A stretch of 64,000 nt of DNA from Acidimicrobiales bacterium (GTDB lineage Bacteria > Actinomycetota > Acidimicrobiia > Acidimicrobiales > GCA-2861595), in the NCBI GenBank assembly GCA_035540975.1, contig DATLFN010000058.1, positions 463 through 64,462 on the forward strand, in the 5' to 3' direction. This document shows positions 6,820 to 56,513 of the stretch, piece by piece; position 1 is the first letter of the stretch, and the number at the start of each line of letters is the position of its first letter. The notes under the pieces were generated by a model, which saw only the letters and a program-made list of their open reading frames with translations, was not told the DNA's origin and ran no database searches. Made by a program: the position numbers and the translations under genes.

Positions 6820-6845
6820 GCGCGCACGGCGCCCGGGGCGCGTCG

Positions 6846-8464: not shown

Positions 8465-8518
8465 TACGCCCTCCCGCCGCCCGGCCCGGCCTCCCGGGGG
8501 ACGCCGGGGTCGCCGTCG

Positions 8519-28300: not shown

Positions 28301-31300
28301 GGTCGTGGCCGTGGCGACGACGCCGGACGCACCCGTGGTTGTGACGCTGGCGGCGTTCGCCCCGCCCGCCTCGGAGCCGACCCGGGTGACGGTGGCGGTG
28401 GTATCGGAGGAGGAGACCGTGCTGCCGCCGATGCTCAGGCCGCTCACGCCGACGAAGGACGAGGTGGCCGTCGGCGTCTGGGTCCCGTTGGCCACGAGCG
28501 ACAGCGAGCCGGCGGTGACGGTGGACCCGTCCCCGACGGAGGCGTTGACGGAGCCGGCCGTGCTCGCCGCCACCGCCATGAGGTTGACCTGGACGCCGCC
28601 GACGCTGACGGCCGCCGTCGTCGCCGTCGACGTCGCCACACCGGTGGCGTTGAGGCTGGCCGCGCCCCCGCCGAGCGACACGGTGGCGTTGTCGCCCACG
28701 ACGGCGCTGGTCGTCTGGGTCAGCGTGGCGGTCGTCTGGGAGCCGCTGCCGCCGGCGAGGGAGACGCCGACGAAGTTGGTCTCCGCCCTCGACGTGGCGT
28801 TCCCGGTGGCGTTGGCGGTGAGCGACCCGGCGGAGAGCGAGCCACCGTCGGCCACCCCGGCGATCGTGGTCCCGCCCAGGGTGGCCTTGACGTCCATCAC
28901 GGTGATGCTCAGCCCGCTCACCGAGACGTTGGCGTTCTCGGCGGTCGCCCACGTGTTCGAGGTGGCGGTCAGCGAGGCCGCCCCCGTGAGGGTGGTGGTG
29001 CCGGCGATCGTGGCCTGCGTCGTCTGGGTGACGTTGGCCGCGATGACGGCGCCGTTGCCGCCGAGGAGGGTGACGCCCACGAAGGTGGCGGAGGCGTCCA
29101 CGTGGCCGGCCGAGCTGTTGTTCGACGTGGCGGTGGCCGTGAGCGAGGAGGCGGTGAGGCTGGTGCCCGAGGTGCTGCCCACCTTGGTGGTGCCGCCCAG
29201 CGTCGACTTCACGAACTGGGCGGCGCCCGCCACCACACCCACGTTCACCCCGGTGGTGTCGGCCGTCGGCGTGGAGGTGGAGGTGGCGGTGAAGGTGGCG
29301 GCGCCGCTGAGCGTCACGACGGCGCCGCTGCGCAGCCCGGCGTCGGTGGTCTGGCTGATCTTGGCCTCGGTGGTGGAGACGGTGAAGGTGCCGGCGGCCA
29401 CGGCCACGGTGGTGGACTCCGGCGTGGCGGTGTTGGTGGACGTCGCCGTGAGCCCGAGGGTGGTGGCGCCCAGCGTGCCGGCCACGTAGGCCTCCGTGGT
29501 GCCGGCGGCGTCGGCCTCGCTCAGGACCACCGAGCCGCCCACCGCCGTCACGCTGACGCCGAGGAGCGTGCTCGTGGCGTCATTGACCGGCGTGGTGGCG
29601 GTGAACGAGGCGGCGCCGGTCAGGGTCGCCTCGCTGCCGGCGGCCATGAAGGCGGACGCCGCGCCGTTGGTCGACGCCTTGGAGCTGGCGCCGGCGCCGG
29701 TCACCGCGCCGACCCCGACCACGTCGGCGTCGGCGTCGGCGTCGCGGTTCGACGTGGCGGAGCCGGTCAGGCTGGTCGCGGTCAGCTTCGCCCCGCCGCC
29801 GAGGTAGGCGCGGGCAGCGGCGCCGACCGTGGCCTCGACGAGCACGACCGAGACGGCGAGGGCGCCGACGCCGACGCTCAACATGTCGGAGTTCGCCGTG
29901 GCCGTCGAGGTGGCGGTGAGGGTGGCGGCGCCGGTGAGGGTGACCGTGGTGGTCGGCGTCGCCGCCGGCACGTTGCCGGTGCGGGCGCCCACGAACGCCT
30001 CCGTGTCGCCCGACGCGCTGGCCTCGGACGTGCCGCCGGTGCCCGTGATGGCGCCGACGCCGATGGGCGTGACCTCGCTGGTGGCGGTCTCGGTGGCGGT
30101 GGCCGTCACGTCGAGGGTGGTGGCCGTCACCGTGGCGCCCTCGCCCACGTAGGCCAGCGTCGCCTGGGTGATCGCGGCGTCCGAGGTGAAGGCGGCGATC
30201 GACACGCCGCCGATGGCGCCGCCCTTGGCGCTGGAGTCGGCGGTGGAGGTGGAGACGGCGTCGATGTCGACCGTGCCCGTGAAGGCGAGCGAGGTGGTGC
30301 CGGAGGGCACGGCGCCGGCCCGGGCGCCGACGAAGGCCTCGGTGACCCGCGAGATGGTGCTCTCGGTCCCACCGGCGGCGCCGCCGCCGCCGAGGCCGAA
30401 GCCCACGCTCACCACCGAGGCGTCGGTGGTGTGGTAGCCCTCGGCCTTCACCTGGAGGCTGGGGGCGGTGACGGACGTCGTGCCGCCGCTCACGTAGGCC
30501 AGCGTGCTGCCGCCCACCGAGGCGTCGGCGAACATGACGGCCACGCCCACGGCTGTGCCCACGGCGGCGCCGTCGCCGGAGGCGGTGGCGGTGAGCGTGG
30601 AGATGGCGTGGACCTTCACGGCGCCCGCGGCGGTGAGGGCGGAGCTGCCGGCGTAGGCCTGGGTGGTGCTGGCGATGTCGGTGGTGGAGCTGGCGCCGGC
30701 CCCGGAGAAGCCGACCGGCGCCACGCTCACGGCCACGGCCACTGCGGTGGCAGTGGGCGACTGGGTGGAGGTGGCCTCGATGGTGATGCCGCCTCCGTTG
30801 GCCGTGGCCGTGGACCCGGTGACGGAGGCCGACGTGGTGCTGGTGATCTGGTTGTCGGTGTAGGAGACGCCGGCGGCCACGCCGACGAAGCCGACGCTGA
30901 ACGCCACGGCCACGACGGTGGCCGTGATGGACGAGGTGTCGGTCGCCGTCACGTCGACGGTCGTGGCCGCCGTCACCGTGCTGCCGGCGGAGACGCGGGC
31001 CGTGGCGTTGGTCGCGATGGTGTTGGTGGCCACGGCGGCGCTGGCGGCGGCCGAGATCGAGGCCGGCGACACCGAGATGCTGAGGGCGGCGGCCACCGGC
31101 GTGGCCGTGATGGTGGACGACTCGGTGGTGGTGACCGCCACCTTCCCACCCGTCGAGGTGACGGTGGAGCCGTCGATGGCGGCGGTGGTCGCGCTGGTGA
31201 CGTCGTTGAGGGCGGTGGCCGAGCCGAGGGAGGCCGCCCCGCTGCCGCCCAGCGACACCGACACGGTGAGGGCGGCGGCGATGGCGTTGGAGGTGATGGT

Positions 31301-34300
31301 GGCGGTGTCGGTGGCTGTGACGGAGACGTCGCTCGCGGCGGTGACGCCCCGGCCGGCCGACGCCAGGCTGTTGGCGATCGACGCCGTGGCGCTGGTGGAG
31401 ATGGTGTTGATCGTCTGGGCGCCGGCCAGGGCGGCCGCGCCGGCCGCGGCCGCGCCCACGGCGACGGCCACGCCGATGCCGGTGGCGGTCGTGCTGATCG
31501 TCGGTGTGGTGGAGGCCGACACGGTGACAGCGCCGGTGGCGGTCACCTTGGAGCTGTCGACGGTGGCCAGGACGACGTCGCCGATGTCGTTGGTGGACAC
31601 GGAGTCCGACACGGCCACGCCGCCGGCGAAGCCCGCGGCGGCGGAGATGGCCAGGGACACGGCGGTCACGGTGGTGGTGTCGGTGGCGGTGTCGGAGGCC
31701 GTGACGGTGACGTCGCCGCCCGAGACGGTCGAGCCGCCGGCGATGGAGGCGGTGACCACGGCGTCGGTGGTGTTGGTCGCCACGGCCACCGCGCCGGCCA
31801 CGCTGATCGAGATGGCGCTGACGGCCACGCTGATCGAGGCCGACACCGGCGTGGCCGTGATCGACGAGGTCTCCGACGCCCCGACGGAGACGTCTCCGCC
31901 CGTCGAGGTGACGGTCGACCCCAGGATCTTCGCCGCCGTGGCGCTGGTGATGTTGTTGACGGCGACGGCCCCACCGATGGCGACGGCGACGCCGGCCGCG
32001 CCGCCGACGCCCACGCTGAGGCTGGCCACGATCGGGGTGGACGTGATGGTGGCGAGGTCGCTGGCACCGACCGTCACCGCCCCGCCGGCGGTGACCGTGG
32101 CGTTGTTCTGCACGAGCGCCTGAGCCGTCGTCCCGATCGTATTGGTGGTGGCGGCGCCCCCGAGGGCGACCGCACCGGCCACCGCCGCGGAGGCCGCGAC
32201 GGCGACGGCGATGCCGACCGTGGTGGCGGTGATGGTCTGGGTCGTGTCGGCGTCCACCGTCACCGTGCCCGAGGCGGTGACCGTGGCGTCGTCGATCTTC
32301 GCCGTCACGGTGTCGGTGACGGTGTTGGTGGCGATGGAGGCGCTGACCGCTGCGCCGCCCGAGAAGCCGGGGGCGACGGAGACGGCGACGCTCACTGCGG
32401 TGGCCGTCGTCTTGATCTTCGCCGTGTCGGCGGCCGTGACGCTCACGTTGTCGCCGTCGACCACCGAGGTGGCGCCGACGACCGACGCCTCGACCGCGTT
32501 CGAGATGGTGTTGGTCCCCACCGACGCGGCGCCCGCCACCGCGATGGACACGGCGGTCACGCTCACGGCCGCCGCGATGGACGCCGCCACGGGGGTCGCC
32601 GTGATGGTCGAGCTCTCCGTGCCGGTGACGCCGACGTCGCCGCTGTCCGAGGTCACGGACGAGTAGGCGACCTTGGCCCTGACCGTGTTGCCCACGGTGT
32701 TGACGGCGACCGCGCCACCCAGCGAGACGGCGACGCCGGCGCCGCCACCGAGGTCGACGCCCACGCTGATGCTGGCCACGATCGGGTTGGAGGTGATGAC
32801 CGAGCCGTCGGCGGCGGAGACGAGGACGTTGCCGCTGCCCGTGGCGGTGAGAGTCGAGACGCCCTGCACCAGGGCTTCCGCCGTGGTGTTGACGGCGTTC
32901 GTGGTCGCGGCTCCGCCCAGGGCGACGGCGCCCGCCACGGCGCCGGCGGCCACGGCCACGGCCACGCCGACCGTGGTGGCCGTGATGGTGGGCGTGGTGC
33001 TCGCCGACACGGTGACGCCTCCGGTGGCCGTCACCGTCGAGCCGTCGACCTTGGCCGTGGCCCGGTCGTCGACGTCGTTGACGGCCACTGCGGCGCTGAG
33101 ACTCACACCGCCGGCGAAGGCGGCGGCGGCGGCCACCGACACGGTGACGGCGGTGGCGACGGTCTTGATGGTGGCGGTGTCGGTGGCGGTGACCGAGACG
33201 TCGGCGCCGCTGACCGTGCTGGCGCCGACGACCGACGCCTCGGCCGTGTCGGCCACGGTGTTCGTGGCCGACGAGACGGCGCCGGCCACCGACACCGAGA
33301 TGGCGGAGACGGCCACGCTGATCGAGGCGGACACCGGCGTCGCCATGATGGTCGAGCTCTCGGTGGCGGTGACGGTGACGTTGCCTCCCGTCGAGGTGAC
33401 CGCGGAGCCGTCGACCGACGCCCTGGCCGTGTTGGTGACCGTGTTCACGGCCACCGCGCCGCCCAGCGACACGGCCACGCCGGCACCGCCGCTGAGGGCG
33501 ACGCTGAGGCTGGCCACCACCGGGTTGGAGGTGATGGTGGCGGTGTCGGTGGCGGTCACCGACACGGGGCCGGACGCCGTCACCGACGAGCCGTTGCGCA
33601 CCAGCGCCTCGGCGGTGGTCCCGATGGTGTTGGTGGTGGCGGCCCCGCCCAGGGCGGCGGCCCCGGCGAAGGTGGCGTCGGCGGCGATGGCCACGGCCAC
33701 GCCCACGGCGAGGGCGGTGATGGTGGGGGTGGTGGACGCCGAGACGGTGACGGAGCCGGACGCGTTGACGGTGGCGTCGTCGATGGCGGCGGTGACCGAC
33801 CCGGTGACGGTGTTGACGGCCACCGACGCGCTGACGGACACGCCCAGGCTGAAGCTGGCACCGGCGGCCACCGAAACGGTGACGGCCACGGCCGCCGTCT
33901 CGATGGTGGAGGTGTCGCTGCCCGACACCGACACGTTGCCGGCGCTCACGAAGCTGCCGCCGGCGATGGTGGCCGAGACCATGTTGTCGATGGTGTTGGT
34001 GGCCACGGTGCCGGCACCGGCGGCGGCGACCGAGAGGGCGGACACGGCCACGCTGATCGAGGCGGCGACCGGCGTGGCGAGGATGGACGACGTCTCGGTG
34101 GCGGTGACGAACACGTCGTCGCCCGTGGCCGTGACGCTGGAGCCGTCGATGGTGGCCGTCGCCGTGTCGGTGATCGTGTTGACGGCCACGGCGCCGCCCA
34201 GCGAGACGGCCACGCCGGGCCCGCCGCTCACCGCGACGCTGAGGCTGGCCACGGTCGGCGTGGCGGTGATGGTGGCCGAATCGGTGGCGGTGACCGAGAC

Positions 34301-37300
34301 GTCGCCACCGGCGACCACGCCGCGGCCGTCGGCCACGGCGCTGTCGAGGATCGACGCCGAGGCCGACGTCGAGATGGTGTTGGTGGCCGCCGCCCCGCCC
34401 AGGGCCACGGCGCCCGCCGCGCCGCCCGAGCCGGCCACGGCCACGGCCACGCCGACGGGGGTGGCCGTGATGGTCGGTGTGGTGGAGGCCGACACGACGA
34501 CGGCGTCGGCGGCGGTGACCTTGGAGCGCTCGACGCGGGCGCTGACCGTGTCGCTGATCTCGTTGACGGCGACGGACACGGCCACCGTGCCGCCCAGGGC
34601 GAAGCCGGGGCTGGCCGAGGCCGCCACCGAGACGGCGACCGTCGTGGCGGTGATCGTGGCCGAGTCGGTGGCCTCGACGGTCACGTCGGTACCCGACACG
34701 GTGGCGTCGGCGACGACGGCGGAGACGGCCGTGCTGGTGGTGTTGGTCGCCGCGGTGGCCGCCACCGACAGCGCCACCGAGACGGCGGCCACGTCGGCGG
34801 CCACGCCGATCGACGCCGCCGTGGCGGTGGCGGTGATGGCGGACGACTCGTCAGCCTCCACCACCACGTCGGCGCCGGTGGAGGTGACCGTGGCGTCGGA
34901 GACCAGGGCGCCCACGGCGCTCGAGACGTCGTTGACGGCCACCGCCGCGCCGAGGCTCACGGCGACGGCGCCGCCCCCGCCGATGGCCGCGCTCAGGCTG
35001 GCGACCGTCGGCGTGGCGGTGATGGTGGCGGCGTCGGTGGCCGTGACCGAGACGTCGCTGCCGGCGCTGACGCCCCGGCCGTCGGCCACCGTGCTGTCGA
35101 CGACGGACGCCGAGGCGGTGGTGGCCATGGTGTTGGTGGCGACGGCCCCGCCCAGGGCCACGGCGCCGGTGACGCCGCCCGAGCCGGCCACGGCGACGGC
35201 GACGCCGACCGGAGTGGCGGTGATCGTCGGCGTCGTCGATGCCGACACGGTGACGGCGTCGGTGGCGGTCACCTTGGTGCGCTCGACCTCGGCGCCGACG
35301 GTGTCGCTGATGGCGTTGACCGCCACCGACACGGCGAGCGAGCCGGCCAGGGCGAAGCCGGGAGCGGCCGAGGCCGAGACCGACACCGCCACGGTCACGG
35401 CGTTGATGGTGGCGGAGTCGGTGGCGGACACCGTCACGTCGTCGGCGGAGAGGATCGTGGAGTCGACGGCCGTGGCGGACACCGCGGTGGTGGTGGTGTT
35501 GGTGGCCGAGGTGGCGGCACCGGACAGCGCCACCGAGGCGGCGGAGATGCCGGCGGCCACGCTCACCGAGGCCGCCGTGGCGGTGGCCGTGATCGTCGAG
35601 GACTCGGAGGCGCTGACGGTGACGCTGCCGGTGGTGGACGTGAGCGTCGAGCCGGCGACCAGCGCGCTGACCGTGTTGGCGACGGTGTTGACCGCCACCG
35701 CCGCCCCGAGGCTGATGGCCACGGCGACGTCGCCGATCGCCACGCTGAGGCTGGCGACGGTGGGCGTCGCGGTGATCGTGGAGGTGTCCGTGGCGCTGAC
35801 GGTGATGGACGCCGCCGTGATCGTGCTCGGGTTCACCAGGGCGGCGACCGTCATGGTGACGGTGTTCGTGGTCGCCGCGCCGCCGAGGGCCAGGGCACCG
35901 GCACCGCCGCTGCCCGAGCCGGCGATGGCGATGGCCACGCCGACGGCGGTGGCGACGACCTCGGCGGTGCTCGAGGCGGAGACGGTGACCGCACCGGTGG
36001 CCGTGACGGTGGAGGACTGGACGGCGGCGGTGACCGAGTCGGTGATCTCGTTGACGGCCACGGACACCGCGGCGGCGGCGGCGAAGGCCAGGCCGGAGGG
36101 CGCGACCGACGCCGAGACGGCCACGCCCACCGCGGTGGCGGTGATCTTCGCCGAGTCGGTGGCCGTGACGGCCACGTCCGCCCCCGTGACCGTGCTGGCG
36201 TTGCGCACCCGCGCCTCGACGGTGTTGCCGATCGTGTTGGTGGCGACGGGAACGGCGGCGGAGACCGTGACGGCGGCGACCTGGAGGCCGACGCCCACCG
36301 CCACCGACGCCGCCGTCGGCGTGGCGGTGATGGCCGCCGCCTCGGTGGCCGACACCGCCACGTCGCCGCCGGCGTTCACGGTCGACCCGTCGACGACGGC
36401 GCTGACCGTGTTGGCGATCTCGTTGACGGCCACGGCGCCGCTGATGGCCAGGCCGACCGCCGTGCTGCCGACCGACACGGCGAGGCTGGCGGCCACCGGC
36501 GTGGCGTCGATGAACGAGCCGTCGGTCGCCGAGACCGTCACCGTCGACCCCGACACCGAGCTGCCGGTGACGAGGGCCGAGACGGTGTCGTCGATCGTGT
36601 TGCGGGCGAACGCGCCGCCCAGGGCGACGCCGGCGCTGGCGCCGTTCTGCGACCAGGCGCCCGACACGGCCACGCCCACGGCGACCGAGTCGATGTTCGC
36701 CGTCTCCGAGGCGGTGACGGCGACGGCGCCGCCGGCCGTGATGGTCGAGCCGGTGACGGTGGCGGACACGGAGTTGGTGATGTCGTCGATCGCCACCGAG
36801 GCGCCGACGGCACCGGCCACGCCCACGTCGCCGGTGGCGAGGGCGAGGGCCACGGCGGTGACGGTGGCCGAGATGGTGGAGCCGTCCGAGGCGGAGACGG
36901 TGACGCCGCCGGGAGTGACCGCCGTGGTGCCGGTGATCGAGGCCGAGACGGTGTTGTCGACCTTGTTGATGGCCACCGCGCCGCTGCCGGCCAGGGCGAA
37001 GCCGGCGGTGGTGCCGCTGGACAGGGCGCCGCCGATGGAGACGGCCGAGGCGGTGATCGACGAGGTGGAGGTGGCGGTCACGCTGACCCCGCCGGCGCCG
37101 GCCACGACCGACGGGACGGCCACCGACGCCGTGACGGTGTTGGCGATGGTGTTGGAGCCGACGCCGGCCGAGCCGGCCACCGAGGCGCTGACGTCGGAGC
37201 CGTTGGAGCCGACCAGGGCGCCCGCCACCATGACGGCGTCGATGTCCGAGGTGTCCGAGGCGGCGACGGTGACGGCGCCGGCGGAGGCGATCGAGCTGTT

Positions 37301-40300
37301 GTCCCGGACCAGGGCCTCGACCGTGTTGGCCACCGTGTTGACGGCCACGGCGGCGGCCAGGCCGAAGGCCAGCGAGCCACCGCCGCCGCTGTTCGAGGCA
37401 CCCACGGCACCGGCGAAGGCGGTGCTGGAGACGGTGGCGCCGGACGTGGCCGTCACCGACACGGAGCCCGTCTTCGCCGCCGTCGTCCCGAGGGGCGAGG
37501 CGTCGACGATGGCCCGGACGGTGTTGGTGACGGAGGCGACGACGACCCCGGCGCCGATGGCGGCGCCGCCGCCGAAGCCCTGGCCGCCGTTGGCGATCTG
37601 GATGGCGATCGCCCCGGCTGTGGCGCTGGTCGAGGAGGCGTCGGAAGCGGCGACGGTCACGGGGCCCGCCGTGGTGATGGCACCGGACTGGATGACGGCC
37701 GTGGTGGTGTTGGCGACCGTGTTCGAGATGCCCGAGCCGGCACCGGCCAGGCCGGCCGTGGAGCCCTGGCCCGTGCTCACCGAGCCGGCGATGCCGATGG
37801 CGACGGCCGACACGGTGGCGGTGGAGGACGAGGTGACCGACACGCCGGCGGCGGCCGTGACGGGCGAGTCGGTGACGGCGGCGGTGACGACATCGGCCAC
37901 GTCGTTGACCACCACGGCGGCACCGACGGTGACCGACCCGCCGAAGCCGCTGCCGGTGACGTTCAGCGAGGCGGCCAGCCCGCCGGCGTCGGCGTCGATG
38001 TCGGACTCGTCGACGGCGGCGACGGTGACCGCCCCGCCGGTGGTGGTGACGGGCGAGTCGGTGATCAGAGCCTCGACGGTCAGGCGGACGGTGTTGCCGG
38101 AGCCGGCCCCGGCGCCGGTGCCCCCGATGCCGCCCTGCTGGCTCTGCGAGAAGCTGCCCGTACCGGCCAGGCTCAGGGCGTCGACGGTGGCGCGGGCCGT
38201 CGCCGTCACGGTGACCGACTGGGCCTGGACGGCGGGCACCGAGGTGATGGCCGCCTGCACCGTGCGGGTGATCGAGTTCGACGAGGCCGAGATGGCGACC
38301 GATACGTTGAACACGCCGCCCTGGCTCTTGCTCACGGCCAGCGTGGCGGCGCCGGCGTCGGCCGTGATGGTCGACTCGTCGAGGGCGGTGATGGCGAGCG
38401 CGCCGCCCACGCTGAGCACCGGGGTGGCCGTGACGAGGGCGACGGTGGAGCCGGTGACGGTGTTGCCCGAGCCGGAGCCGGCACCGGTGAAGTTGATCCC
38501 GCCGCCCTGGCTGGTGCTGGTGACGGTGCCGGCGATGCCGAAGGTGAAGGCGTCGATGGTGGCGTCGGACGTGGCGGAGACCGTGAGGTTCCCGCCGACG
38601 GTGACCGACGCCGAGGCGACGGTGGCGAGCACGTCGGCGTTGATCTCGTTGACGGCGAGCGCGGCACCGACCGTGACGTCGGCGCCACCGCTCTGGCGGG
38701 ATGACAGCCCGACGGCGGCCCCGCCGGCGTCGGCGTTGATCGTGGAGGTGTCGGAGGCCGACACGGCGGCGTCGCCGGTGACGTTCACGACGGCACCCGT
38801 GCGGACGGCGGCCTCGACGTCGCTGTCGACCGTGTTCTTGGAGGCGGCGCCGGCGCCGGCCAGGGAGAACCCGGACCCGCCGCCGCTGCCGCCATGCGTC
38901 GCCGTGAGCCCGCCGGCGAACGTGAGGGCGTCGATGGTGGCGTTGGCCGTGGCCGAGACGGTGGCCCCGGCGGCGGTGACGGTGCTCGACTCGACGGTCG
39001 CCGTGGTCTCGGTGTCGACGCCGTTGAACGCGATGGACGCACCGAGGGCGACGGCGCCGGGTGGGCCCTTGTTCAGCACCACGGCGACGGCGCCGGCGTC
39101 GACCTTGATCGACGCGTCGTTCACGGCCGTCACCGACAGGTCCCCGCCGGCGACCACCGTGGCCCCCGAGACGGACGCCTTGGTGCGGTTGGCGATGCCG
39201 TTGGCGCCGCCGCTGCCGGCACCGGCGAACGAAACGCCGCCGCTGCCACCGCCGCCGCTGCCGCCGCCGGTCGAAGCGCTGCCGGCGATGCCGAGGGCCA
39301 GCACGGCGATGGCGGCCAGGGAGGACGCCTGCACCGACACCAGCGAACCGGCCAGGACCGAGGTGCCCGGCTCGATGGAGGCGAAGACGTCGTTGGCCAC
39401 GTCGTTGAAGCCGAGGCCGGCCGCCACGGTGAGGCTGTTGCCGCTGCCCGACGTCTTAACGGCGACCGCGGCGGCCGCCGTGTCGGCGTCGATCGTGGAG
39501 GTGTCGGTGGCCGTGATGGACACCGAGCCGGCGGTGGCCGTGACCGACGACGTGCCCCGCACGGCGGCCCGCACGACGTTGGCGACGCTGTTGACGGTGA
39601 CGGCGCCGGCGCCCACGGCCGAGAACCGGCCGTTGCCCGAGCCGCTGCTGTTGGTCTGCACGGCACCCGCCCCGGCCACCGCCAGGGCGTCGATGGTGGA
39701 GGAGGAGGTAGCCGAGATGGCGACGTCCTGGGCTGCCGTCACCGTGGAGTCGTCCACCAGCGCCTCGACGGTGTTGGCCACGTCGTTGATGGCGACGGAG
39801 GCGCCGAAGGCCAGCGTGTTGCCGCTTGTGACGGCCACGGCGGCGGCACCGGCGTCGGCCGTGACCACGGTGGCGTCGGAGGCGGCGACGGTGACCGAAC
39901 CGCCGGCGCTCACGTCCGAGCCGTCGAGCCCGGCGCGGGCGGTGTTGGCCACGCCGTTGAAGACCACGCTGCCGGCCAGGTCGAAGCTCCAGGGCGTGCC
40001 GCCGCTGCGCTGCTGGCTCCCGGAGATGGTGGCGGCCAGGCCGATGGCCAAGGCGTAGACGTCGGCCTCGGTGCCGGCCTCGATCACCACGTCGCCGGCC
40101 GCGTCGACGTCCGACCCCACCACGGTGGCCTCGGCGTCGCCGTCGGTGGTGTTGACGGCGATGGCGGCGCCCACGTTCACGCTGCTGCCGCTCGGGAACA
40201 GCACGAGGGTGGCGACGCCGGCGATGGCGTCGATCTCGCTGCTGTCGGACGCCGACACCTTCACCTGGCCGGCGGCGGAGACGCCGTTCGGGGCGGCCGC

Positions 40301-43300
40301 GTTGGTGATCCGGGCGGACACGTCGTTGTCGATCTCGTTCTTGGTGACGGCCCCGGCGCCGTTGAAGGCGATCGAGCCGCCGCCGCTGGAGCTCTGCGTC
40401 CCGTTGGTGGCGGCGCCGGCGATGGCGAGGGAGAAGATGGTCGCCGACTCCAGGCCCTCGACGAGCACGTCGCCGCCGGCGGCCACGTCGGACGAGTCGA
40501 CGAGGGCGTTCACGTCGTTGGCGATGGAGTTGATGGCCACCGAGGCGCCCAGGGTCACGGCCGTTCCGCCGGTCCGGGCCAGGGCGGCGGCGCCGGCGTC
40601 GGCGTCGATGTCGGAGGTGTCGGACGCCCGGACGGTGACGTCCCCGGTGCCGCCGGTGAGCACCGTGGAGCCGGTCCGCACGATGGCCTCCACCACGGTG
40701 GCGATCGAGTTGCCGCTCCCGGCGCCCGCACCGGTGAAGTTGAACCCACCGCCGCTGCTGCCCCCGCCGCCGGAGGAGAGGGCGCCGCCGATGGCGATGG
40801 TGAGGGCGAAGATCCCGGCGTCCTCGGTGGCGAGGACGTCGACGGCCCCGGTGGCGGCCAGCGAGGACGCCTCGACCAGGGCGCGGACCACGTTGTCGAC
40901 GTCGTTGAAGGCGAGGGCCACGCCGAGGCTGAACCCGTTGGCCGCCTGCCCCGAGCCGCTGGCCTGGGTCAGGGACAGGGCGCCGGCGATGGCCTCGATA
41001 CGGGTGGTGTCGTCCGCCTTCACGGTGATCGAGGCCGCCCTCAGGCTGCTGGCGTTGCCCACCGAGGCGGTGGTGGTGGCGACCACCTCGTTGAGCGACC
41101 ACGTGCCGGCCGCGGCGCCGACGAACGGGCCGCCGCTGCCGCCGCTGCTCGAGGCCAGCGACGCCGCCCCGCCGATGGTCAGGGCGAAGATCGAGAGGTC
41201 CGAGACGGCCTGGACGTCGAGGTCGCCGGCGACGACGAGGTCGGTGTCGTCCACCAGCGCCGACACCGCGGCCGAGATGTCGTTGAAGGCGAAGGAGATG
41301 CCGAAGGACAGCGACGTCCCGCCCTTGGTGCCGCCGGCCACCCGGGCGATGGACACGCCGCCGCTGTCGGCGGTGACGTCCGAGGAGTCGGTCGCCCGCA
41401 CGAGGACGCCGCCGCCGTCGGTCGTCGTGACGGCGCCGCCCACGACCTCGGCCTTCACGACCGACGTGATGTGGTTCACCGAGCCGGCCGCCGCCCCGGC
41501 CAGGGCGAACGGGGCGCCGCCGCTGCCGCTGCCGCCGGAGGCGCTCTGCGACTCGTTCACCAGCGCACCGGCCACCGCGATGATCAGGATCTCGGCCGCC
41601 GAGCTGGCCACGACTTTCACGTCGCCGGCGGCGTCGACCGTCGTGTTCACGAGGTGGGCGACCACCGTCTGGGAGAGCGTGGTGATGGCGGCGGAGGCGC
41701 CGACCGAGGCGTCGATGCTGTTGGCGCCGCCGCCGCCCTGGCCCGGGTTCTGGTTCTGGCCGTTCTGCTGCGTCTGGTCCCGCAGGTTGACGGCGAAGGC
41801 GCCGGCGATCACCAGCAGCTCGCTGAAGTCGGCGTCGGAGGCGTAGGCGGCCCGCACGTCCAGGGCGACGTCCGCCGGGTCGGTGCCGTCGCCGGTGGTG
41901 ATCGTGGCCCCGTCGACCAGCGCCTCGATGGTGCCGGCCACGTCCAGCCAGGTGATGGAGCCGGCGATGGCGGCCGTGTTGTCGACGTTGGCGCCGGCCG
42001 CCGCCACCAGCCGCACCTTGTCGTCGGCGGTGGCGTCGACCACGACCTTCTTGGCGGTCACGGTGCGGGCGCCGATCGTGGCCAGGACGCTGCGGTCGAC
42101 GTCGAACCAGCCGAAGGCCACGCCCACGCCGATCTTCACGCCGCCGGCGGCCGAGCCGGCGATGATCGTGACGTCGTTGCGGTCCGCGGCGTCGACGGTG
42201 AGCGTGCCCCCGATCGTGAGCGGCGACCCGGCGTCGAGGCGGACCTCGACGACCTTGGTGAGGGAGACGGCGGCGGCCGAGCCGGCCAGCCCGAACTCCT
42301 CGGCGCCCTTCTCGGAGGCGGCGGCGACGGAGATTCCCTTCACCTCGGATGAGGCCTTGACGGAGACGTCACCCGGGACCGTGCCGTTGACGGTGCCGGC
42401 GACGAAGGCTCGCACGGTGACGTCGAAGAGGTTGACGTCGATCCCGGCGCCGAAGCCGAACTTCGTCTGGCGGGCGTAGCCGCCGGCGTCAGACGTGAGC
42501 TGGATGACGTCCTTCGCCTCGACCCTGATGCTGTCGGGGTCGGTGATGACCGTGGCGCTCCCGACGCTCGCCTCGGTCGTGTTGGTGACCTGGTTGAGGT
42601 TGACCGCTCCGGCCACGGCTGCGGTGCCGCTTGACGGTTGCTGTTGCTGCCCAGCCGGTGGCCCGCGGATGCCGCCCGCCGCGCTGGCCGACGTGGAGAT
42701 CAGGCGGGTGTCGGTGGTGGCGATGATGCTGACGTTCTGCACGTCGGCGACGGTGACGTCGCCGGTGCGGGCGGTGGTGATCTGGTTCACCACGTTGTTC
42801 GTGAAGCTGCCGGCGATGCCCACCGAGGTGTTGGACTGGTTGGCGGGCGGCTGGTTGCCCTGGCTGCTGGTGGTGCTGGAGTTCTTGGTGCTGGCCCGGT
42901 CGAGGGCGTAGGGCGCCGAGATGGCCACGATCATGCCGTTGGCTGCCGCCTTGATGCGCAGGTCGCCGCCGATGGTGATGGTGCCGCCGCCGTCGAGGAC
43001 GGCGTCGGTGACGGTGGCCACGTCGTTCCAGGAGACGACGCCCGAGATGTCCATGCCGCCGGCGCTCTTGGCACCCTGCTGGGTGGTGTTGGTGCTGCTG
43101 GCGTTCTGCTGGGTGCCACCGGTGTTGGTGCCGGCCGGCTTCACCTGGCCGCCGAGGGCCTCGCCGGCGATGGCGATGGCGTAGAGGCGGGTGCCGGTAG
43201 AGGCGAGGATCACCACGTCACCCGTGGTCGTGACGTTCCCCGCCGGCGTGGCCCCGCCGTTGACGTTCCCCCGGATCGCCCTGGCCGTCGCGTCGACGTC

Positions 43301-46300
43301 GTTGACGGCGATGGAGATGCCGGCGCCGAGGCTGGTCTCGCCGGTGGCCGGGTCCTTCTGGATGCTGCCGGCGAACACGACGGCGATCACGTCGCTGGTG
43401 GCGTCCAGCGTGAGGTGCACGGCGGTGACGGTGGCGCCGTCCTCCAGCACCGCGGTGGCCGCGTTGGTGGCGCCGGAGAGGACGATGGTGCCGGCGATGC
43501 CGAAGTCCTTGGCCGCCGCGCCCGCCTCGGCCACCGTGACGGTGAGCGTGCGGGCATCGGCGCTCACCAGCACGTCGCCGCCGGGAGCGGAGAGCGTCGC
43601 CCCGTCGTCGACGACGGCGCTGGCCGTATTGGCCTTGGACGTCTTGAGGAAGGTGACGCCCACCGCGCTGCCGTCGCTCTTGGCGCTGATCTGGATCTTG
43701 GTGTTCTGGTCCTTGTCGCTGTCGACCGTGCCGAAGAACGAGAGCACCGAGGCGAACCCGCCGAGGTCCACCGTCTCGGAGAGAGCCTGGGCGTCGACGT
43801 GGATGCTCGGCCGGCGCACGGCATGGGTCCCGGCGACGGCCGGCAGGTCGGCCGTCTTGAGGTCCAGGCCGGTGCCGCGCCGGGCGAGCTCGCGGGTCCT
43901 GGCCAGCTTGACCTTGTCGGCGTCCACCTTGATCACGTAGTAGGTCTCGCCGTCCACCAGGCCGTGGACGGCGGTCGTGGTCGCGTCCTTGCGGTAGGTC
44001 ACCGCGTCGCCCGTCTCGAACCCGTGGGCCGTGAGAGTGAGCTCGTCGGTGGTCTCGTTGACCGCCGAGGTGCCCGCGAACGTCTTCTGGACCACGGGCC
44101 CGGCGGTGACGTCGGCGCCGCTGTCCACGTGGGCGGCGGCGGCGTTGGCGACGGTGAGGAACAGGAAGCTGCCGCCGAAGGCGAACTTCGTCTGCGCCTG
44201 CTGTTGGCCACCCGTCCCGGTGTTGCTCTGCTGGGTGGTGGCCGACTCCTTGGCGGCACTGGCCCCCACGTAGGTGTTGGCCTTGCCGCCCGCCACCGCC
44301 GAGTTGCGGTCGATGAAGCCCTGGAGGAAGTCGAGCTTGGCGACGGTGTCGGCCAGGTCCTGCTCGAGGTCCGTGGCCGGGTCCTTCGACACGAAGTCCC
44401 AGATGTCCTTGATGGCGTCGTACCAGGGATCGTCGTCGATGTCGGGGACGTTGAGGCTGACGTCGAGCAACTTGGCCAGGTCGGCGTCGACGGCCAGGGC
44501 CTTGGGCATGGTGGCCTCGGCCACCACGTTGACGTCCTTGGTCGCGGTGACGCTGGCCGCGCCGATGGAGGCGTCGGCGTCGTTGTCGTAGGTGGCGAAG
44601 GCGATGCCGCCGGCCAGGGCGGTCTGCCCGCCCGCGCTCGACCCGCCGATGGCGATGGTGGAGAAGGTGTCCTCGGTACGGGCCAGCACGAGCACGACGT
44701 CGGCGTTCACCACGGCGCCGTCGGCGATCTCGGCCACGGCGGAGTTGCCGCTGAAGGCCAGCACCAGCGCGGCGGCGAACTCCAGGCTGAGCTGGTTGTT
44801 GGCGCCGGTCTGGGGGTTGGTTCCCTGGGCCTGCGACGTCTGCTGGGTGTTCTGGCTGGCCGGGGTCGACTGCTGACCGCCCCGCACCAGCGAGCGGGCC
44901 CGGGTCTCGTTCTCCTTGTTCACCGAGCGGGCCTCCACCGTCACCTTGCCGTGGTTCGCCGTGGTGGACGACGTGGTGCCGTCGAGGACGGCCCGGGCGT
45001 TGGAGTCGGCCTGGCTGATGGCAATGCCGGCGGCGATCCCCCTGCTGGTCGGCTTGATGACCAGGCTCTCGGTGGCCACCTTGAAGGTGTTCTCGACCGC
45101 CGCCCGCACGGTGACGTTGCGCCCGGTGAGGCTGGGCGTGGCCATGGCGATGTCGGCGTTCGAGACCGGGCGTCCGTAGGTGACGGCCAGCGAGGGGCCG
45201 CTGGCCTGCTTCTTCGGGGCGGAGGCGTTGGCCGTGGTGCTCTGGTTCTCGACGCCGCCGACCACCCACGTCTTGGCGTCGAGCTCGTTGACGACCCCGG
45301 CCAGGATGGCGAGGTCGCCGGTGGCGTTGACGGTGACGGTGCCCTCGAGCACCACCGTGGCCGTGCCCTTGGAGACGGCGACGGTGAAGCCGTAGTCCTC
45401 GGCGCTCCAGTTGTCACCGGCGTTGGGCGTCTCCGGCTTGGTCTTCAGGGCCACCGTGTGGAGGAAGACGTCGGAGAGGGCCTTGGCCTCGATGGTGGTG
45501 TCGCCGGTCGAGGTGATGGTCACCAGGTCCCGCAGCGTGAGCGTGCTCTCCGAGCGGCCGAACACGCCTTGGGCCCGCACGCCGGAGATGTCGAGCAGCG
45601 GGTCCTGGGCGCCGATCAGGTCGAGACCCGACTCGACGAGGCTCGGGATCTCGAACCCGAGGAGGCTCGCCAGCAGGTCGAGGGTGGTGAGCTGCTGGCC
45701 CGACTGGAGGATGCGGTGGACCTTGCGCACCTCGACGAACGGGTCGCTGGTCTCGTCGGTCAGGGTGGCCTCGGTCGTGAGGGTGAGCACGGTCGCGGTG
45801 AGCGAGTCGATCTGGTACATGCCGTTGTTGGAGCCGGTGCCCAGCACGTAGATCTCGTTGCCGGCGGCGAAGCCCTCGGCCGTCCAGTCGCCCTCCTCGC
45901 GGGTGATGGTGCGCCCGGATGCGGCGAAGGTGAGCTTCTTGAAGTCCTTGGCCGCCACCTCGGGGTCGAGGGCCACGATGGGAGGGGCGGTGACCTCGAA
46001 GGCCTTGATGGTGACGTCGGTGTCGCCGGTGGTGGGGGACAGCGTCTCCGTGGCGACGATGGTGATCTTGGTGGCCTCGACGGTGAGGACGTGGAACTCG
46101 CCGTCGTTGGCCGTGCTCCCGGTGATGCGGACGATCTGGCCCGCCTTGAACCCGTCGTCCACGAAGCTGCCCGAGGCGCGGGTGATGGAGTCAGCCCCGG
46201 TGCCGCCGTCCACGAAGTCGACCGTGCCGGTGAAGGTGGCCTTCTCCTCCTCCTCGGCGTCGAAGAGGGTGATGACGTCCAGGTTGATGTCCGCCAGCTT

Positions 46301-48121
46301 GTGGAGCTGGGAGTCGACGAGGAGGACCACGTTGGCGCCGTGGAGGGTGGCGCCCGCCTTCACCTCCAGGGTCGACACCAGGTCGCTCCCGCTGAAGTCG
46401 GTGACGGAGGTCGTGAGGCGCTGGTCGTACACGTTGACGACAGCCAGGCGGAGGTCGCCGTCGACGTTCAGGGTGGAGCCCGCGCCGACGGTGAGGGTGC
46501 GGATGGCCTCCAGGTCGAGCTTGACCGTGGCGCCGCCGTCGGTGAGCGACACGCCGTCGTCCACGCTCACCGTGTCCCACTCGCGCGCCTCGACGTCGCC
46601 GGCGAAGGCGACCGCGGAGTCGAAGACCAGGGCGTCGGTGTCGTCGTCGGCCGAGTCGGCACCGCCCTTCAGGACGAGCTTGACGGCCAGCGTCCCCACG
46701 CCCTTGACGGTGAGCGTGTCGCCCCCGGAGCCGAGGTCGATGGTGAGCGAGCCGCTCGGTGCGGCGAAGGTGTGATCCTCGAACAGGTCGTTCATCGACT
46801 CGAGGAGCAGATCGGTGCCGCTGACCTTGAGCTCGACGACGTCGTCGCCGCTGCTGCCGACCAGTGTCAGGTTGGTCGCGTCGCCGATGATCACCGGCTC
46901 GAGGCCGGCGTAGGAGAACTCCACGCCGTCGAGCGTCACCACGCCCGAGTCCGGTCCGGTGGCCCGGTAGACGGCGGTCTCGTGGCGCGCGCGGACGTCG
47001 AGCACGTCGAAGCCCCGGTCCCCGCCGTCGACGGTGCCGGTGAGGGACCCGCCCTCCTCCACCACGAAGGTGTCCTCGGTGTCGGACGCCCCGACCAGGC
47101 GCTCGACGCCGGAGAAGGCGATGAAGCCGACGGCGCCGCGGTCGGGACCGGTGATGCTCCACGTGCTGTCGACGGCCGGGGCCCGGAGGGTGTCCGTGCC
47201 CGCGCCGCCGGCGAAGGTGACGCCCACCGTGCCGGCACCGACGGCCACCTCGACGGCGAGGTCGTCGTCGCCGTTGGTGCCGTTCACCAGTATGTCGGAG
47301 ACCATGGCCAGCGGTCGGGACCGGCCGCCGATCGTCACGTGCCCGTCGGCCGAGAAGACGAGCGTGGCCGGGCCGTCGGACAAGGTGATGTTCCACGGGG
47401 CCGGCGCGCCCGGGTTGGTGGCGGGGTCCGCGGTGGCGGCGGTGGTGACCGCCGCCGGCTCCGTCGACGTGGTCGTCGCCAGGTCGCCGGTCGTGGTGGC
47501 GGTCGCCGCCGACGGGGTGGGGGCGGCGGCGGTCGTGGTGGGCTTCGGGGCCGGCTCGGTCGTGGTGGGGGCGGTCGTGGTGGGGTCGGTCGTGGTGGTG
47601 GGCGACGGCAGCGGCACGACCTCGCCGGGCGGCGGCGTCGGCGCGGCGGCGAGTGGCACGCCGGCGCTGTGCCCGGGTGCCAGCGTCGGGCTCATGACGC
47701 CGTCGCCGTGGCCCAGGCCGAGGACGTGGCCGAGCTCGTGGCGCAGCACGGTGGCGAGGTCCATCCGAGACGCGGCGTCCTCGAGGTGCATCACCGACCA
47801 GCCGTGGCCGGCGGCCACGGGATCGACGGTGATGGTGGCGCCGGTGGACCGGCCCAGCTCGGCGTCGGCCAGGTCGGCGACGGTGGCGGTGACCGCCGCC
47901 AGGTCGGCGTCCGGCCTCGCCGAGAGCCAGTCGCCCTTGGCGGCGGCCAGGGCGGCGTCCAGCGCCGCCTGCGTGAGTGGGCGGGCGTCGGCGGCGGCCG
48001 GTGGCGCGGTGGCCGACACGAGCAGTTGGGCGGTCGCCGGCAGGGCGCGACCGACGGGCGGGACGACGCTGGCGGCCAGGGCCAGGGCCAGCGCGAACCG
48101 TCGAGCCGCGGCCCGCGTCAC
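10328..48121 (-). CDS. Giant secreted repeat protein, 12,597 aa (about 1.2 MDa estimated from length), multi-domain putative surface fibre or adhesin
   Basis: This is the only frame open across the full 37.8 kb, from the GTG start at 48119-48121 to TGA at 10328-10330. It has an N-terminal signal peptide. Recognisable extracellular modules share this frame: HExxHxxGxxH x2, GGxGxD motifs, LamG-like x2 and Calx-beta-like x2. It lies on the same strand as the surrounding operons. Confidence 0.9.
10331..10831 (-). other. 167-residue Pro/Gly/Arg/Ala-rich C-terminal tail of the giant protein, with no recognisable sorting signal
   Basis: Low-complexity sequence ending ...ARRFLFAP. I saw no LPXTG/LAXTG motif and no clear TM-plus-basic anchor. 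Confidence 0.5.
10832..11170 (-). other. C-terminal metzincin-like mini-module with [11 protein letters not shown] and a downstream VMA
   Basis: The first His codon is at 10916-10918. It aligns position-by-position with the N-terminal module (AR.L...W...VADL...D..AAG.GW...[18 protein letters not shown]...LAPG). Confidence 0.7.
11216..11926 (-). other. Two Calx-beta-like domains preceded by a Pro10 hinge (11933-11962)
   Basis: ...[18 protein letters not shown]...[24 protein letters not shown] and [12 protein letters not shown]...[19 protein letters not shown]...[32 protein letters not shown]...ATVTILDN. Confidence 0.8.
11981..13060 (-). other. Two LamG/concanavalin-A-like jelly-roll domains
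   Basis: [27 protein letters not shown]...[18 protein letters not shown]...[19 protein letters not shown]...GTFDNVAV, then a second copy TFDGG...[17 protein letters not shown]...[18 protein letters not shown]... Confidence 0.75.
13358..16189 (-). other. Region with dispersed hemolysin-type (GGxGxD) calcium-binding nonapeptide clusters
   Basis: [29 protein letters not shown]; [32 protein letters not shown]; [20 protein letters not shown]; [57 protein letters not shown]; [20 protein letters not shown]; [27 protein letters not shown]. Confidence 0.8.
16615..18730 (-). repeat. Cluster of six ~40-aa D-G-F-x-x-G-Q mini-modules (two more copies at 45776-46171)
   Basis: [12 protein letters not shown]; [12 protein letters not shown]; [17 protein letters not shown]; [17 protein letters not shown]; [14 protein letters not shown]; [17 protein letters not shown]. 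The N-terminal copies are [14 protein letters not shown] and [14 protein letters not shown]. Confidence 0.65.
18960..19990 (-). other. Two beta-sandwich (Calx-beta/cadherin-like) domains, each ending in V-x-[LV]-x-D-[ND]-D-T-P-G
   Basis: One ends ...[23 protein letters not shown] and the other ...[20 protein letters not shown]. The assignment is by eye and the family is uncertain. Confidence 0.5.
25540..26520 (-). repeat. Cluster of five ~45-aa H-G-x-x-x-G-D...G-L-x-x-G-x-x-Y-Y-V mini-modules (a sixth copy is at 43892-44032)
   Basis: [33 protein letters not shown]; [35 protein letters not shown]; [15 protein letters not shown]; [34 protein letters not shown]; [17 protein letters not shown]. 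The distant copy reads [35 protein letters not shown]. Confidence 0.65.
28100..30470 (-). repeat. Type-B repeats: about 15 units of ~52-56 aa beginning A-[YF]-[VL]-G / A-F-V-G
   Basis: [22 protein letters not shown]..., [11 protein letters not shown]..., [20 protein letters not shown]..., [18 protein letters not shown]... through [14 protein letters not shown], read directly. Confidence 0.65.
30470..45330 (-). repeat. Type-A repeat core: roughly 70-80 units of ~57-68 aa (longer near the N-terminus), Ala/Ser/Thr/Val/Gly-rich, alternating-residue beta-strand pattern
   Basis: The recurrent pattern is V-x-V-x-A-x-[DE]-x-[ST]-x-I-x-A ... G-A-[AS]-[VI]-A-[VI]-N-x-[IV]-x-[ND]-x-V-x-A-x-[VI]-x-x-S-x-V-x-A-x-G, read along residues ~930-5885. 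The boundaries are approximate. Confidence 0.75.
30780..36740 (-). repeat. Eight tandem ~735-760-bp super-repeats (four type-A units, ~250 aa each)
   Basis: The landmark [10 protein letters not shown](A) or close variants recurs at about 36.7, 35.99, 35.24, 34.49, 33.74, 33.00, 32.25 and 31.51 kb. Adjacent copies share long near-identical stretches. Confidence 0.8.
47396..47641 (-). other. Thr/Pro/Ala-rich linker (residues 161-242)
   Basis: [52 protein letters not shown]..., a low-complexity spacer typical of secreted actinobacterial proteins. Confidence 0.8.
47672..47986 (-). other. N-terminal metzincin-like mini-module (residues 46-150) with [11 protein letters not shown] and a downstream VMS Met-turn candidate
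   Basis: The HExxHxxGxxH motif starts at His128 (47738-47740). It is paralogous to the C-terminal module at 10832-11170. Confidence 0.7.
48029..48121 (-). other. Signal peptide of the giant protein (residues 1-31, [31 protein letters not shown]|QLL)
   Basis: Basic n-region, hydrophobic core and an A-T-A cleavage-type motif. The cleavage site is predicted by eye only. Confidence 0.7.
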
Positions 48122-48245
48122 GCGGCGGCGTTCCCGGATGGGCGCGCCGTGCCGGCTCCAGCCGGCGCAGCGCGACGCATCCCAGCGCCCACGGCGCGTG
48201 TCGTCGAAGCGGACTGCACGGACCTCCCCCTCAAGAGCTGCGACC

Positions 48246-49640: not shown

Positions 49641-49642
49641 CG

Positions 49643-50989: not shown

Positions 50990-51351
50990 AGCGCGGCGAC
51001 GACGGCTTCGGCGACGGCGTCGGTGTGGGTGATGGAGAGGTGGAGGGTCGTGACGCCCTGCTGCCCGGCGAGGGCGGCGGCCCGGCCGCTCAGCCGCAGC
51101 GACGGCGCACCGCTGGCCGCCGTGCACACCTCCACGTCCCGGAAGTCGACGGCGCCGAGCCCGACGCCGAGCGCCTTCATGGTCGCCTCCTTCGCTGCGA
51201 AGCGGGCGGCCAGGCGGGGCGCCGGGTCGACGAAGCGGGCCCCGTAGGCCAGTTCCCCCTCGGTGAACAGCCGCTCGGCCATGCGCGGGGTCCGGGCCAG
51301 CGCCCGCCGGAAGCGGCCCACCTCCACGGCGTCGATGCCCAGGCCGATCAT
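50986..51351 (-). CDS. acpS: Holo-[acyl-carrier-protein] synthase, 121 aa
   Basis: MIGLGIDAVEVGRF...FAAKEATMKALG...LSITHTD. The ATG overlaps the glmS-like stop (ATGA). Confidence 0.9.
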   Translation of the reverse strand: MIGLGIDAVEVGRFRRALARTPRMAERLFTEGELAYGARFVDPAPRLAARFAAKEATMKALGVGLGAVDFRDVEVCTAASGAPSLRLSGRAAALAGQQGVTTLHLSITHTDAVAEAVVAAL

Positions 51352-54749: not shown

Positions 54750-54764
54750 GGGCCGTCCGCCAGT

Positions 54765-56105: not shown

Positions 56106-56111
56106 GGGGAG

Positions 56112-56504
56112 CTACCGCTTGGAGTACTGCGGCGCCTTGCGGGCCTTCTTCAGCCCGTACTTCTTGCTCTCCTTCTCGCGTGCGTCGCGGGTGAGGAACC
56201 CGGCCTTCTTGAGCGACGTGCGCTGGTCGGGGTCCAGCTCGGCCAGCGCCCGGGCCAGCCCGAGGCGGAGGGCGCCGGCCTGGCCGGACGTGCCGCCGCC
56301 GTCGATGGTGGCGTCCACGTCGTAGACCTCGGCGGTGTTGGTGACCCGCAGCGGCTCGGTGGCCAGGGTGACCTGCACGGCCGACGGGAAGTACTGGTCC
56401 ACCGGGCGCTTGTTGATGATGACGGTGCCGGTGCCGGGGCGGACCCGGACCCGGGCGACCGCCCGCTTGCGACGGCCGGTGGACTGGACGAGCGGCTTCG
56501 GCAT
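56112..56504 (-). CDS. rpsI: 30S ribosomal protein S9
   Basis: ...[19 protein letters not shown]...[17 protein letters not shown]. Confidence 0.97.
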
Positions 56505-56513
56505 CGGGCGTTC

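Follow-up and report, generated by a model that had tools for sequence, protein, structure and literature searches.

The 64,000-nucleotide stretch analysed here (the window; contig DATLFN010000058.1 of the Acidimicrobiales assembly GCA_035540975.1) carries a giant gene on its minus strand, an open reading frame (ORF) of 12,597 amino acids at 10328..48121, listed with a GTG start, whose product has a size of 1.2 MDa. Close behind its signal-peptide-like N-terminus this giant protein possesses a minimal module of about 105 residues that belongs to the MEROPS M10-like matrixin branch of the metzincins, and a homologous copy lies near the C-terminus. The best overall explanation of our data, which we consider rather probable, is that the module is a complete minimal zinc-peptidase domain, present as a pair that caps both ends of the giant protein.

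The zinc motif and its conservation

Window positions 47672-47986 of the minus strand translate to ARPLTQAAL..., i.e. residues 46-150 of the giant ORF, exactly as quoted in a first-pass annotation of this DNA, which had described a metzincin-type mini-module ending in a zinc motif directly after a signal peptide (the latter, here too, judged by eye). We delimit the N-terminal mini-matrixin module at residues 46-156 (47654..47986, minus strand). Its zinc motif HExxHxxGxxH (H128, E129, H132, G135 and H138; 47708..47740, minus strand) is followed by GVM, the methionine of which, M143 (47693..47695, minus strand), forms the Met-turn and precedes a conserved L147-x-P-G150; the site at residues 128-138 together with this methionine, invariant in all relatives examined, is the complete metzincin-type site that the annotation had proposed. 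The motif is not a product of chance, because the giant protein contains 119 His and only two HExxH, each within one of the two homologous modules, and an expectation of only 3.4e-5 for HExxHxxGxxH follows from its composition.

When residues 44-156 were scanned with HMMER against 1.84 billion representative proteins, 2,430 cluster representatives matched at E<=1e-3, of which 247 also passed E<=1e-10. The matches span the whole query (residues 3-113) and extend well beyond the zinc motif. Since thousands of proteins match the entire stretch of about 105 residues, we regard it as a real domain and not as a chance motif. Two sets of relatives form the basis of the following comparisons: 134 full-length domains out of the best 150 matches, used for conservation, and an alignment of 40 member sequences of the family (A1).

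Invariant or nearly invariant in the 134 domains are W65, D83-L84, L89-G90, D100 and A103-A104-G105-[WH]-G107-W108 (AAGHGW at residues 103-108 of the N-terminal module), and in the second half M120-D121-L122, H128, E129, G131, H132, G135, M143 and L147-x-P-G150, whereas strict invariance in A1 is found for W65, D100, G107, W108, H128, E129, G131, H132, G135 and M143. H128, E129 and M143 are each present in 134 of 134 domains, and H132 in 129 by alignment (128 when counted with a regular expression for the motif). The position of the third ligand, H138, is more variable: it is His in 123 of the 134 aligned domains, with four Asp and four Glu (by the regular expression 122 His, four Asp, four Glu and three Thr), so that the replacements are mostly acidic (8/11), and among 96 motif occurrences in cross-phylum loci 23 have Asp at this place. 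A methionine follows the third ligand at a distance of 5-10 residues in all 134 domains. The family consensus accordingly reads as a helix with L-T...W, then D-L, L-G and I-D-x-x-A-A-G-W-G-W, followed by M-D-L-x-T-V-x-x-HExGHxxGxx[HD], G-x-M and L-x-P-G, and the module of the window fits the family unit, which comprises about 105-120 amino acids and lies at most about 200 residues from a protein end. This conservation argues for a working catalytic site, because a structural metal site would not need an invariant Glu. The idea of a "degenerate metal-binding cap", one of the options raised in the annotation, is therefore unlikely with the catalytic Glu and the Met unchanged in 134 relatives. 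The interpretation given in the annotation is, taken as a whole, partly supported: the module is a true mini-metzincin, of the matrixin type, and is probably functional.

Family assignment and fold

The best Pfam match of the isolated module is Peptidase_M10 (PF00413), which it matches with 26.6-27.5 bits (cut-off 24) and an E-value of 6e-6. The alignment covers only positions 95-141 of the 159 profile positions, which correspond to the active-site helix and the Met-turn; when longer pieces of the protein are searched, the score drops below the cut-off (23.9 bits with 600 residues and 20.7 bits with 5,000 residues). PF00413 is matched at E<=0.01 by 40 of the 40 members of A1, the M7 profile PF02031 by four and the mini-zincin profile PF06262 by one (E 0.004), and a scan of the module against NCBIfam gave no significant match. 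A profile built from A1 finds matrix metalloproteinases (MMPs) and their bacterial relative karilysin among PDB sequences (MMP-20 at 4.6e-7 and karilysin at 1.2e-6, also MMP-11 and MMP-16), and helix A ("ltqaeldaalaqakaeWlaa") is aligned as well, weakly and with the order kept.

An AlphaFold model computed with A1 reached a predicted local distance difference test score (pLDDT) of 95 and a predicted template-modelling score of 0.87; a single-sequence AlphaFold2 run was poor (pLDDT 61) and was set aside. The model comprises helix A (51-68), three strands (78-81, 90-93 and 96-99) and the active-site helix (122-133), past which an ordered coil follows. In a Foldseek search of the PDB the top 50 matches are all MMP catalytic domains with probability 1.0 (among them karilysin 4R3V, MMP-9, MMP-12, MMP-13 and MMP-1), with template-modelling scores of 0.55-0.61 normalised on the query and 0.33-0.52 on the MMP target. 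Judged from the model, the fold is MMP-like, and it is by this fold match that the three His and the Glu are inferred to converge on one metal site. An assignment to a non-peptidase fold, for which the annotation had suggested a check, was not found: the profile search points to Peptidase_M10, and the fold matches are MMPs only.

With the matrixins (M10A; karilysin and MMPs, PDB 4R3V and 2XS3) the module shares the HExxHxxGxxH on the active-site helix, the invariant methionine downstream, helix A with its conserved Trp and an "I-D...W" segment ahead of the active-site helix. We take L89-G-x-[ST] to resemble the "L-A-H-A" edge strand of MMPs, and I-T-[IV]-D100...W108 presumably resembles the "H-F-D...W" segment that precedes MMP helix B; if these resemblances are right, the substrate-binding edge strand is kept in the module.

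What is stripped away is considerable, and the annotation was right in calling the module unusually small. MMP catalytic domains have about 160 residues and a five-stranded sheet, in contrast to about 105 residues, three strands (two lost) and two long helices in the module. The S-loop, which in MMPs carries structural zinc and calcium sites, is reduced to just four residues (85-88) between the first strand and L89-G90, so that these structural metal sites are absent. Helix C is without a counterpart: nothing matches profile positions 142-159, and the model shows no helix past the Met-turn. The cysteine-switch propeptide of MMPs (PRCGxPD) is likewise absent: the first Cys of the giant protein is residue 7462, and helix A is separated from the predicted cleavage site of the signal peptide by no more than about 15 residues. 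Further differences are the residue past the third His, which is not the Ser typical of the matrixin family, the spacing of 5-10 residues between third ligand and Met, and the position of the module as the terminal part of a much larger protein. The module is thus clearly homologous to M10A, yet outside its architectural definition (five strands, three helices, S-loop, cysteine switch).

The giant protein, its second module and the history of the pair

The G+C content at third codon positions (GC3) of the giant ORF is 0.98, compared to 73.6% G+C for the window, which argues that the ORF is a true coding sequence. From its N-terminus onwards the protein consists of the signal peptide, the first mini-matrixin, a Pro/Thr linker and about 50 LktA_tand_53 repeats (NF012206, 1012.9 bits); thereafter come RTX repeats, a LamG-like domain, Calx-beta, the second mini-matrixin and a basic tail. 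Pfam matches to PF00353, PF06439, PF03160 and PF00413 are found in the last 2,597 amino acids.

The annotation had envisaged a single module at a fibre tip, and this has to be revised. A search of the window's own genome recovered a paralogue near the C-terminus of the same protein (residues 12316-12432; 10826..11176, minus strand), which is 44% identical to its N-terminal counterpart (E 5e-19). This second copy comes after Calx-beta, has HExxHxxGxxH followed by AVM, and leaves 165 residues to the protein end. In addition, the module is a standard terminal part of numerous large secreted proteins in many phyla. The sole other match in this genome is weak (E 0.34) and lies in a 400-amino-acid open frame (L003, G000:C146:29472-29564), presumably an ordinary metallopeptidase.

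A maximum-likelihood tree of 66 module copies, built from short sequences and moderately supported, places 10 of 11 N-terminal copies in one actinobacterial group of 13 rows (Shimodaira-Hasegawa-like approximate likelihood ratio test, SH-aLRT, 87). L031, a row of this group not labelled as N-terminal, shares the cassette found downstream of N-type modules and is itself probably of the N type, in a long-read assembly affected by a frameshift. The C-terminal copy of the window clusters with other actinobacterial C-terminal copies, and the N label requires three changes on the tree versus a mean of 10.4 after shuffling, with none of 500 shuffles as low. These results are indicative of N- and C-type copies being old, separate lineages. 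The N-terminal copy of the window is 55-65% identical to N-terminal copies of other proteins versus 44% to its own C-terminal partner, and because it is closer to the foreign N-terminal copies, the two-ended layout appears to be inherited and not the result of a recent internal duplication.

Conservation at this end extends to a whole cassette of leader, module, low-complexity linker and a beta domain ("W-x-L-x-M/L-S...FGG...I-x-I-x-G-x-x-x-DD"). A cultured actinobacterium, Sinomonas mesophila MPKL 26 (L037, NZ_KV908323.1:382761-388087), possesses the N-terminal cassette with leader, a module with Asp as third ligand, an Ala/Pro linker and a matching first beta domain, and would be a practical experimental organism for it.

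Distribution across genomes

The 40 genomes nearest to that of the window, all from its genus, family or order and several of them nearly closed assemblies, gave no match to the module at E<=1e-5. Of 401 genomes sampled across the phylum only five, the window's genome included, contain full-length copies. Loss, transfer or assembly drop-out of repeat-rich genes can each account for such a patchy distribution of the giant gene. The open frames of the carriers measure 3,214-13,159 amino acids where contigs allow, and the two-ended layout recurs in a 7,448-amino-acid ORF of genome G176, an 11,282-amino-acid ORF of genome G354 and an actinobacterial protein of 7,426 amino acids (P0014). All 15 copies of the phylum sample are terminal: nine are N-terminal and start 92-207 residues past the preceding in-frame stop, six are C-terminal and end 70-194 residues ahead of the stop, and none is internal.

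One contig of G176 (189,503 bases) contains three giant ORFs within 100 kb (G176:C45:23478-121595; open frames of 13,159, 11,695 and 7,448 amino acids), each with an N-terminal module. In these three proteins (L009, L025 and L026) a segment PSPxxLxGVxxxARxFWxxVVP... lies between signal peptide and module. It resembles helix A of the module, with weak hidden Markov model matches to profile positions 7-53, and may represent either a pro-segment or the remnant of half a module; the window protein has no such helix-A-like segment ahead of its module.

A scan of GTDB species genomes was limited to the exact peptide HELGHVLG[LY], taken from a 6-sequence alignment, and is for this reason no gauge of the conservation of the first two ligands. 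It recovered full modules in Actinomycetota (Gaiellaceae, Thermoleophilia, Acidimicrobiales and Sinomonas mesophila), Planctomycetota, Chloroflexota, Verrucomicrobiota, Pseudomonadota (seven Bradyrhizobium species, Massilia, Acinetobacter and Labrenzia), Cyanobacteriota (Calothrix), Spirochaetota and Myxococcota, mostly near the C-terminus and in a few cases internal. Giant relatives bear names such as "choice-of-anchor D", "Calx-beta domain-containing" or "RTX toxin-like" in their source records and are never called peptidase, and literature searches for small or truncated matrixin domains in giant proteins of bacteria turned up no study of this family.

The C-terminal modules of Bradyrhizobium spp. 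(L047-L052, L056, L070 and L071) feature an insertion of about 30 residues (GWFVDPTP...EF...) past AAGHGW, Asp as third ligand and a conserved tail of about 90 residues past the module that ends in DLVV or DLIV. We take this tail to resemble the C-terminal signals that direct proteases and lipases into type I secretion.

Position relative to the membrane

The N-terminal module starts 5-18 residues past the predicted signal-peptide cleavage site. The leader itself (residues 1-31; 48029..48121, minus strand; judged by eye) has an Arg-rich n-region, an h-region of 12 residues with a mean Kyte-Doolittle value of 2.57 and a possible cleavage site, likewise recognised by eye, after A-T-A, so that the start of the giant protein looks like a Sec-type signal peptide. 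Comparable leaders with RR and a hydrophobic stretch precede the N-terminal copies of relatives. A twin-arginine translocation (Tat) signal was considered for the RR in the leader and dismissed, given the poor fit to the motif and the implausibility of Tat export for a protein of 1.2 MDa. The N-terminal copy is predicted from its leader to be held at the membrane during and just after export.

The opposite end is best seen in monoderm relatives, six of which (L024, L030, L033, L034, L039 and L041) have C-terminal copies followed by a linker of 40-170 residues, a clear hydrophobic helix and basic residues, with tails such as ...LAVVLTMVLLVGALLRRRTR, ...WLLLFVLLVVVAASRPTRRLRWR and ...LLVLLLVSTALYRPRRRAR. 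By its sequence this combination of transmembrane helix and basic residues is a C-terminal membrane anchor, which puts the module at the outer side of the membrane and near to it. In the window protein the C-terminal copy is followed by a Pro/Gly/Ala/Arg-rich tail of 165 residues (10331..10825, minus strand) with no clear transmembrane helix: its highest 17-residue Kyte-Doolittle mean is 1.69, and 18 Arg and Lys face 9 Asp and Glu in the last 154 residues. A frameshift that hides an anchor was not found in this tail, where GC3 stays at or above 0.90 up to the stop and the alternative frames contain no hydrophobic anchor; Arg-rich tails without a clear transmembrane helix also occur in other relatives. 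A position of the module at the "tip of the fibre", as the annotation had suggested, is doubtful in view of both copies adjoining membrane-embedded segments, the signal peptide on one side and the transmembrane anchor of relatives on the other.

Other features of the giant gene and its neighbourhood

A Pro/Thr/Ala-rich linker (about residues 157-236; 47414..47653, minus strand) leads from the module to the first beta-rich domain of the shaft, and relatives have equivalent low-complexity linkers, acidic or rich in Ala and Pro, at the corresponding place. No alternative start was found for the giant ORF: from the preceding in-frame stop up to the GTG at 48121, its frame contains no further ATG, GTG or TTG. 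An upstream ORF of 33 codons (48118..48219, minus strand) has a strong Shine-Dalgarno sequence (GGGGGAGG) and ends in a TGA that shares bases with the start codon of the giant gene (GTGA); the Shine-Dalgarno sequence of the giant gene itself is weak. This small ORF may serve translational coupling or encode a leader peptide; it is regulatory context and lies outside the mini-matrixin domain.

The giant gene is situated amid housekeeping genes. Upstream (window 48453-56513) are alanine racemase (alr), the NAD(P)H-hydrate repair enzyme (nnr/yjeF), glmS, glmM and rpsI, and downstream (window 2111-9379) are a tsaD-like gene, a GNAT acetyltransferase, groEL and IMP dehydrogenase. An ORF on the tsaD/groEL side, recognised by eye in its translation, we take to be uracil-DNA-glycosylase-like. 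Among the neighbours in the window no secretion, sortase or inhibitor partner genes were found near the giant gene.

Discussion

Our data suggest with fair probability that the module binds zinc and is catalytically active. By homology the zinc would be held by H128, H132 and H138, E129 would activate the water, and M143 would form the Met-turn beneath the site. The hairpin 89-99 with its conserved L-G...I-D would supply the edge strand, and a substrate would then lie along residues 89-93. Both copies would work beside membrane-embedded ends, namely the signal peptide and, in relatives, the transmembrane or basic tail, and this common position makes membrane-adjacent work most likely. Since the module occurs almost only at the ends of exported proteins of very large size, next to membrane-embedded segments, local processing would be the most economical role. 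It is possible, though we would not call it probable, that the module acts in this way, by trimming, release or maturation of its own or sister giant proteins, and is not a free digestive enzyme.

The closest working model for such a role is provided by CLCA1 and CLCA4, in which an MMP-like N-terminal domain cuts its own chain and frees a fragment from the membrane anchor (PMC11231702 and its reference 19). As in the giant protein, the MMP-like domain is N-terminal in a secreted or membrane-anchored multidomain protein; however, the CLCA domain is eukaryotic and larger and has the motif HExxHxxxGxxDE. The serralysins (M10B), too, are secreted proteins in which an M10-type site and RTX calcium repeats occur together. 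In these, a full-size N-terminal protease is the main body of an enzyme of about 50 kDa, in contrast to the giant protein, a repeat protein of 1.2 MDa that starts with a signal peptide and has its peptidase-like part as a small cap.

With regard to size, a precedent is the mini-zincin Acel_2062 (PDB 3E11; Trame et al. 2014), a zincin scaffold of about 110 residues with a three-stranded sheet and short loops that is thought to be derived from larger peptidases (PMC3890501). It differs from the module in lacking a Met-turn and in not being exported: Acel_2062 has the motif HExxHxxGxxD, is a cytosolic stand-alone dimer that crystallised without zinc, and has no known activity (PMC3890501, where mini-zincins are called M94 in a figure legend). 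Precedents for truncated zincin or matrixin scaffolds (PMC3890501, PMC3406945) suggest by analogy that such scaffolds are not necessarily dead. Snapalysin (M7, PF02031, PDB 1C7K) is another very small secreted actinobacterial metzincin (about 132 amino acids) with a Met-turn, and has Asp as third ligand as do some members of the module family, but snapalysin acts as a free enzyme and has a propeptide of its own, whereas the module is shorter and embedded in giant proteins.

Despite these similarities we consider it very improbable that the module is a member of either described small-peptidase family, snapalysin, which the annotation had brought into play, or the mini-zincins (Zincin_1/DUF1025, PF06262). 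The sizes are comparable (105-130 amino acids), both families have HExxHxxGxx[HD], the mini-zincin sheet is three-stranded too (PMC3890501), and PF02031 can be aligned weakly over residues 65-150. However, this alignment yields 16.4 bits versus a cut-off of 25, the related profile NF033628 and the snapalysin structure 1C7K reach only E 0.29 and 0.24, and the counts for A1 given above (40/40 for PF00413 versus 4/40 and 1/40), together with 50 best structural matches that are all MMPs, speak for the matrixins. Mini-zincins, moreover, are cytosolic stand-alone proteins without a Met-turn (PMC3890501), whereas the Met of the module is invariant and the domain is exported as part of a giant protein. 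A non-catalytic role, in which the module would be a zinc-dependent or metal-free structural, capping or binding domain, i.e. a pseudo-protease for folding, anchoring or ligand recognition, has more in its favour: S-loop, helix C and propeptide are absent, the solved Acel_2062 structure is zinc-free and without known activity (PMC3890501), and in a few relatives Arg, Leu or Thr takes the place of a ligand. We nevertheless judge it unlikely, given that neither the Glu, which metal binding does not need, nor the Met varies in any of the 134 domains, that Asp or Glu, which still bind zinc, account for most substitutions at the third ligand, and that such a pattern of conservation is expected of enzymes and not of pseudo-enzymes.

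If the module is an active peptidase, it could alternatively be an outward-facing tip protease that acts on foreign substrates, such as environmental proteins or the surfaces of prey and competitors, at the free fibre ends. The intact and conserved catalytic residues are in agreement with this idea, as are the N-terminal position of the module, which becomes a free protein end once the signal peptide is cleaved, the neighbouring LamG, Calx-beta and RTX parts, which look like binding modules, and the many diderm carriers that look secreted. On the other hand, the C-terminal copies of monoderms lie 40-170 residues from a membrane anchor and thus at the cell-proximal end, a cleft devoid of S-loop and helix C would suit a general protease badly, and for a general enzyme one would expect a free secreted form, whereas the module is nearly confined to very large proteins. 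We therefore regard a tip protease as not very likely.

Several points weigh against a membrane-adjacent, catalytically active module as well. The PDB matches are only about 20% identical, we found no assayed or solved member of the subfamily in the literature, and activity is not guaranteed, since helix C and the S-loop, both missing from the module, give the S1' pocket its shape and the fold its stability in MMPs. The juxtamembrane argument comes partly from relatives, as the window's own tail has no clear transmembrane helix, and the N-terminal copy would be untethered if signal peptidase removes the leader. The linkers beside the modules are of low complexity and unconserved, and no cleavage site can be identified in them. 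Several diderm copies are internal or lie ahead of type I secretion-like tails, which makes a single role for the whole family uncertain.

A more far-reaching interpretation, which we put forward as doubtful, is that the module represents a separate minimal metzincin family at the MEROPS level, devoted to juxtamembrane self-processing of giant surface proteins, with paralogues specialised for each end. Its approximately 105 residues would then be the smallest natural peptidase domain with a Met-turn, without S-loop or C-terminal helix, and would cut in cis or between sister molecules, freeing the proteins from their membrane-embedded N- or C-terminal segments.

The module of the window is a clean example of its family and not unique to this genome: it recurs in thousands of very large secreted proteins of Actinomycetota, Planctomycetota, Pseudomonadota, Chloroflexota, Cyanobacteriota and other phyla. 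If it is active, it would push the lower size limit of natural metzincin catalytic domains further down and would show which parts of the MMP scaffold are dispensable. Its role, once known, would annotate a recurrent and so far unlabelled end-piece of giant bacterial surface proteins, and the module could explain how megadalton proteins are matured, released or retained at the cell surface.

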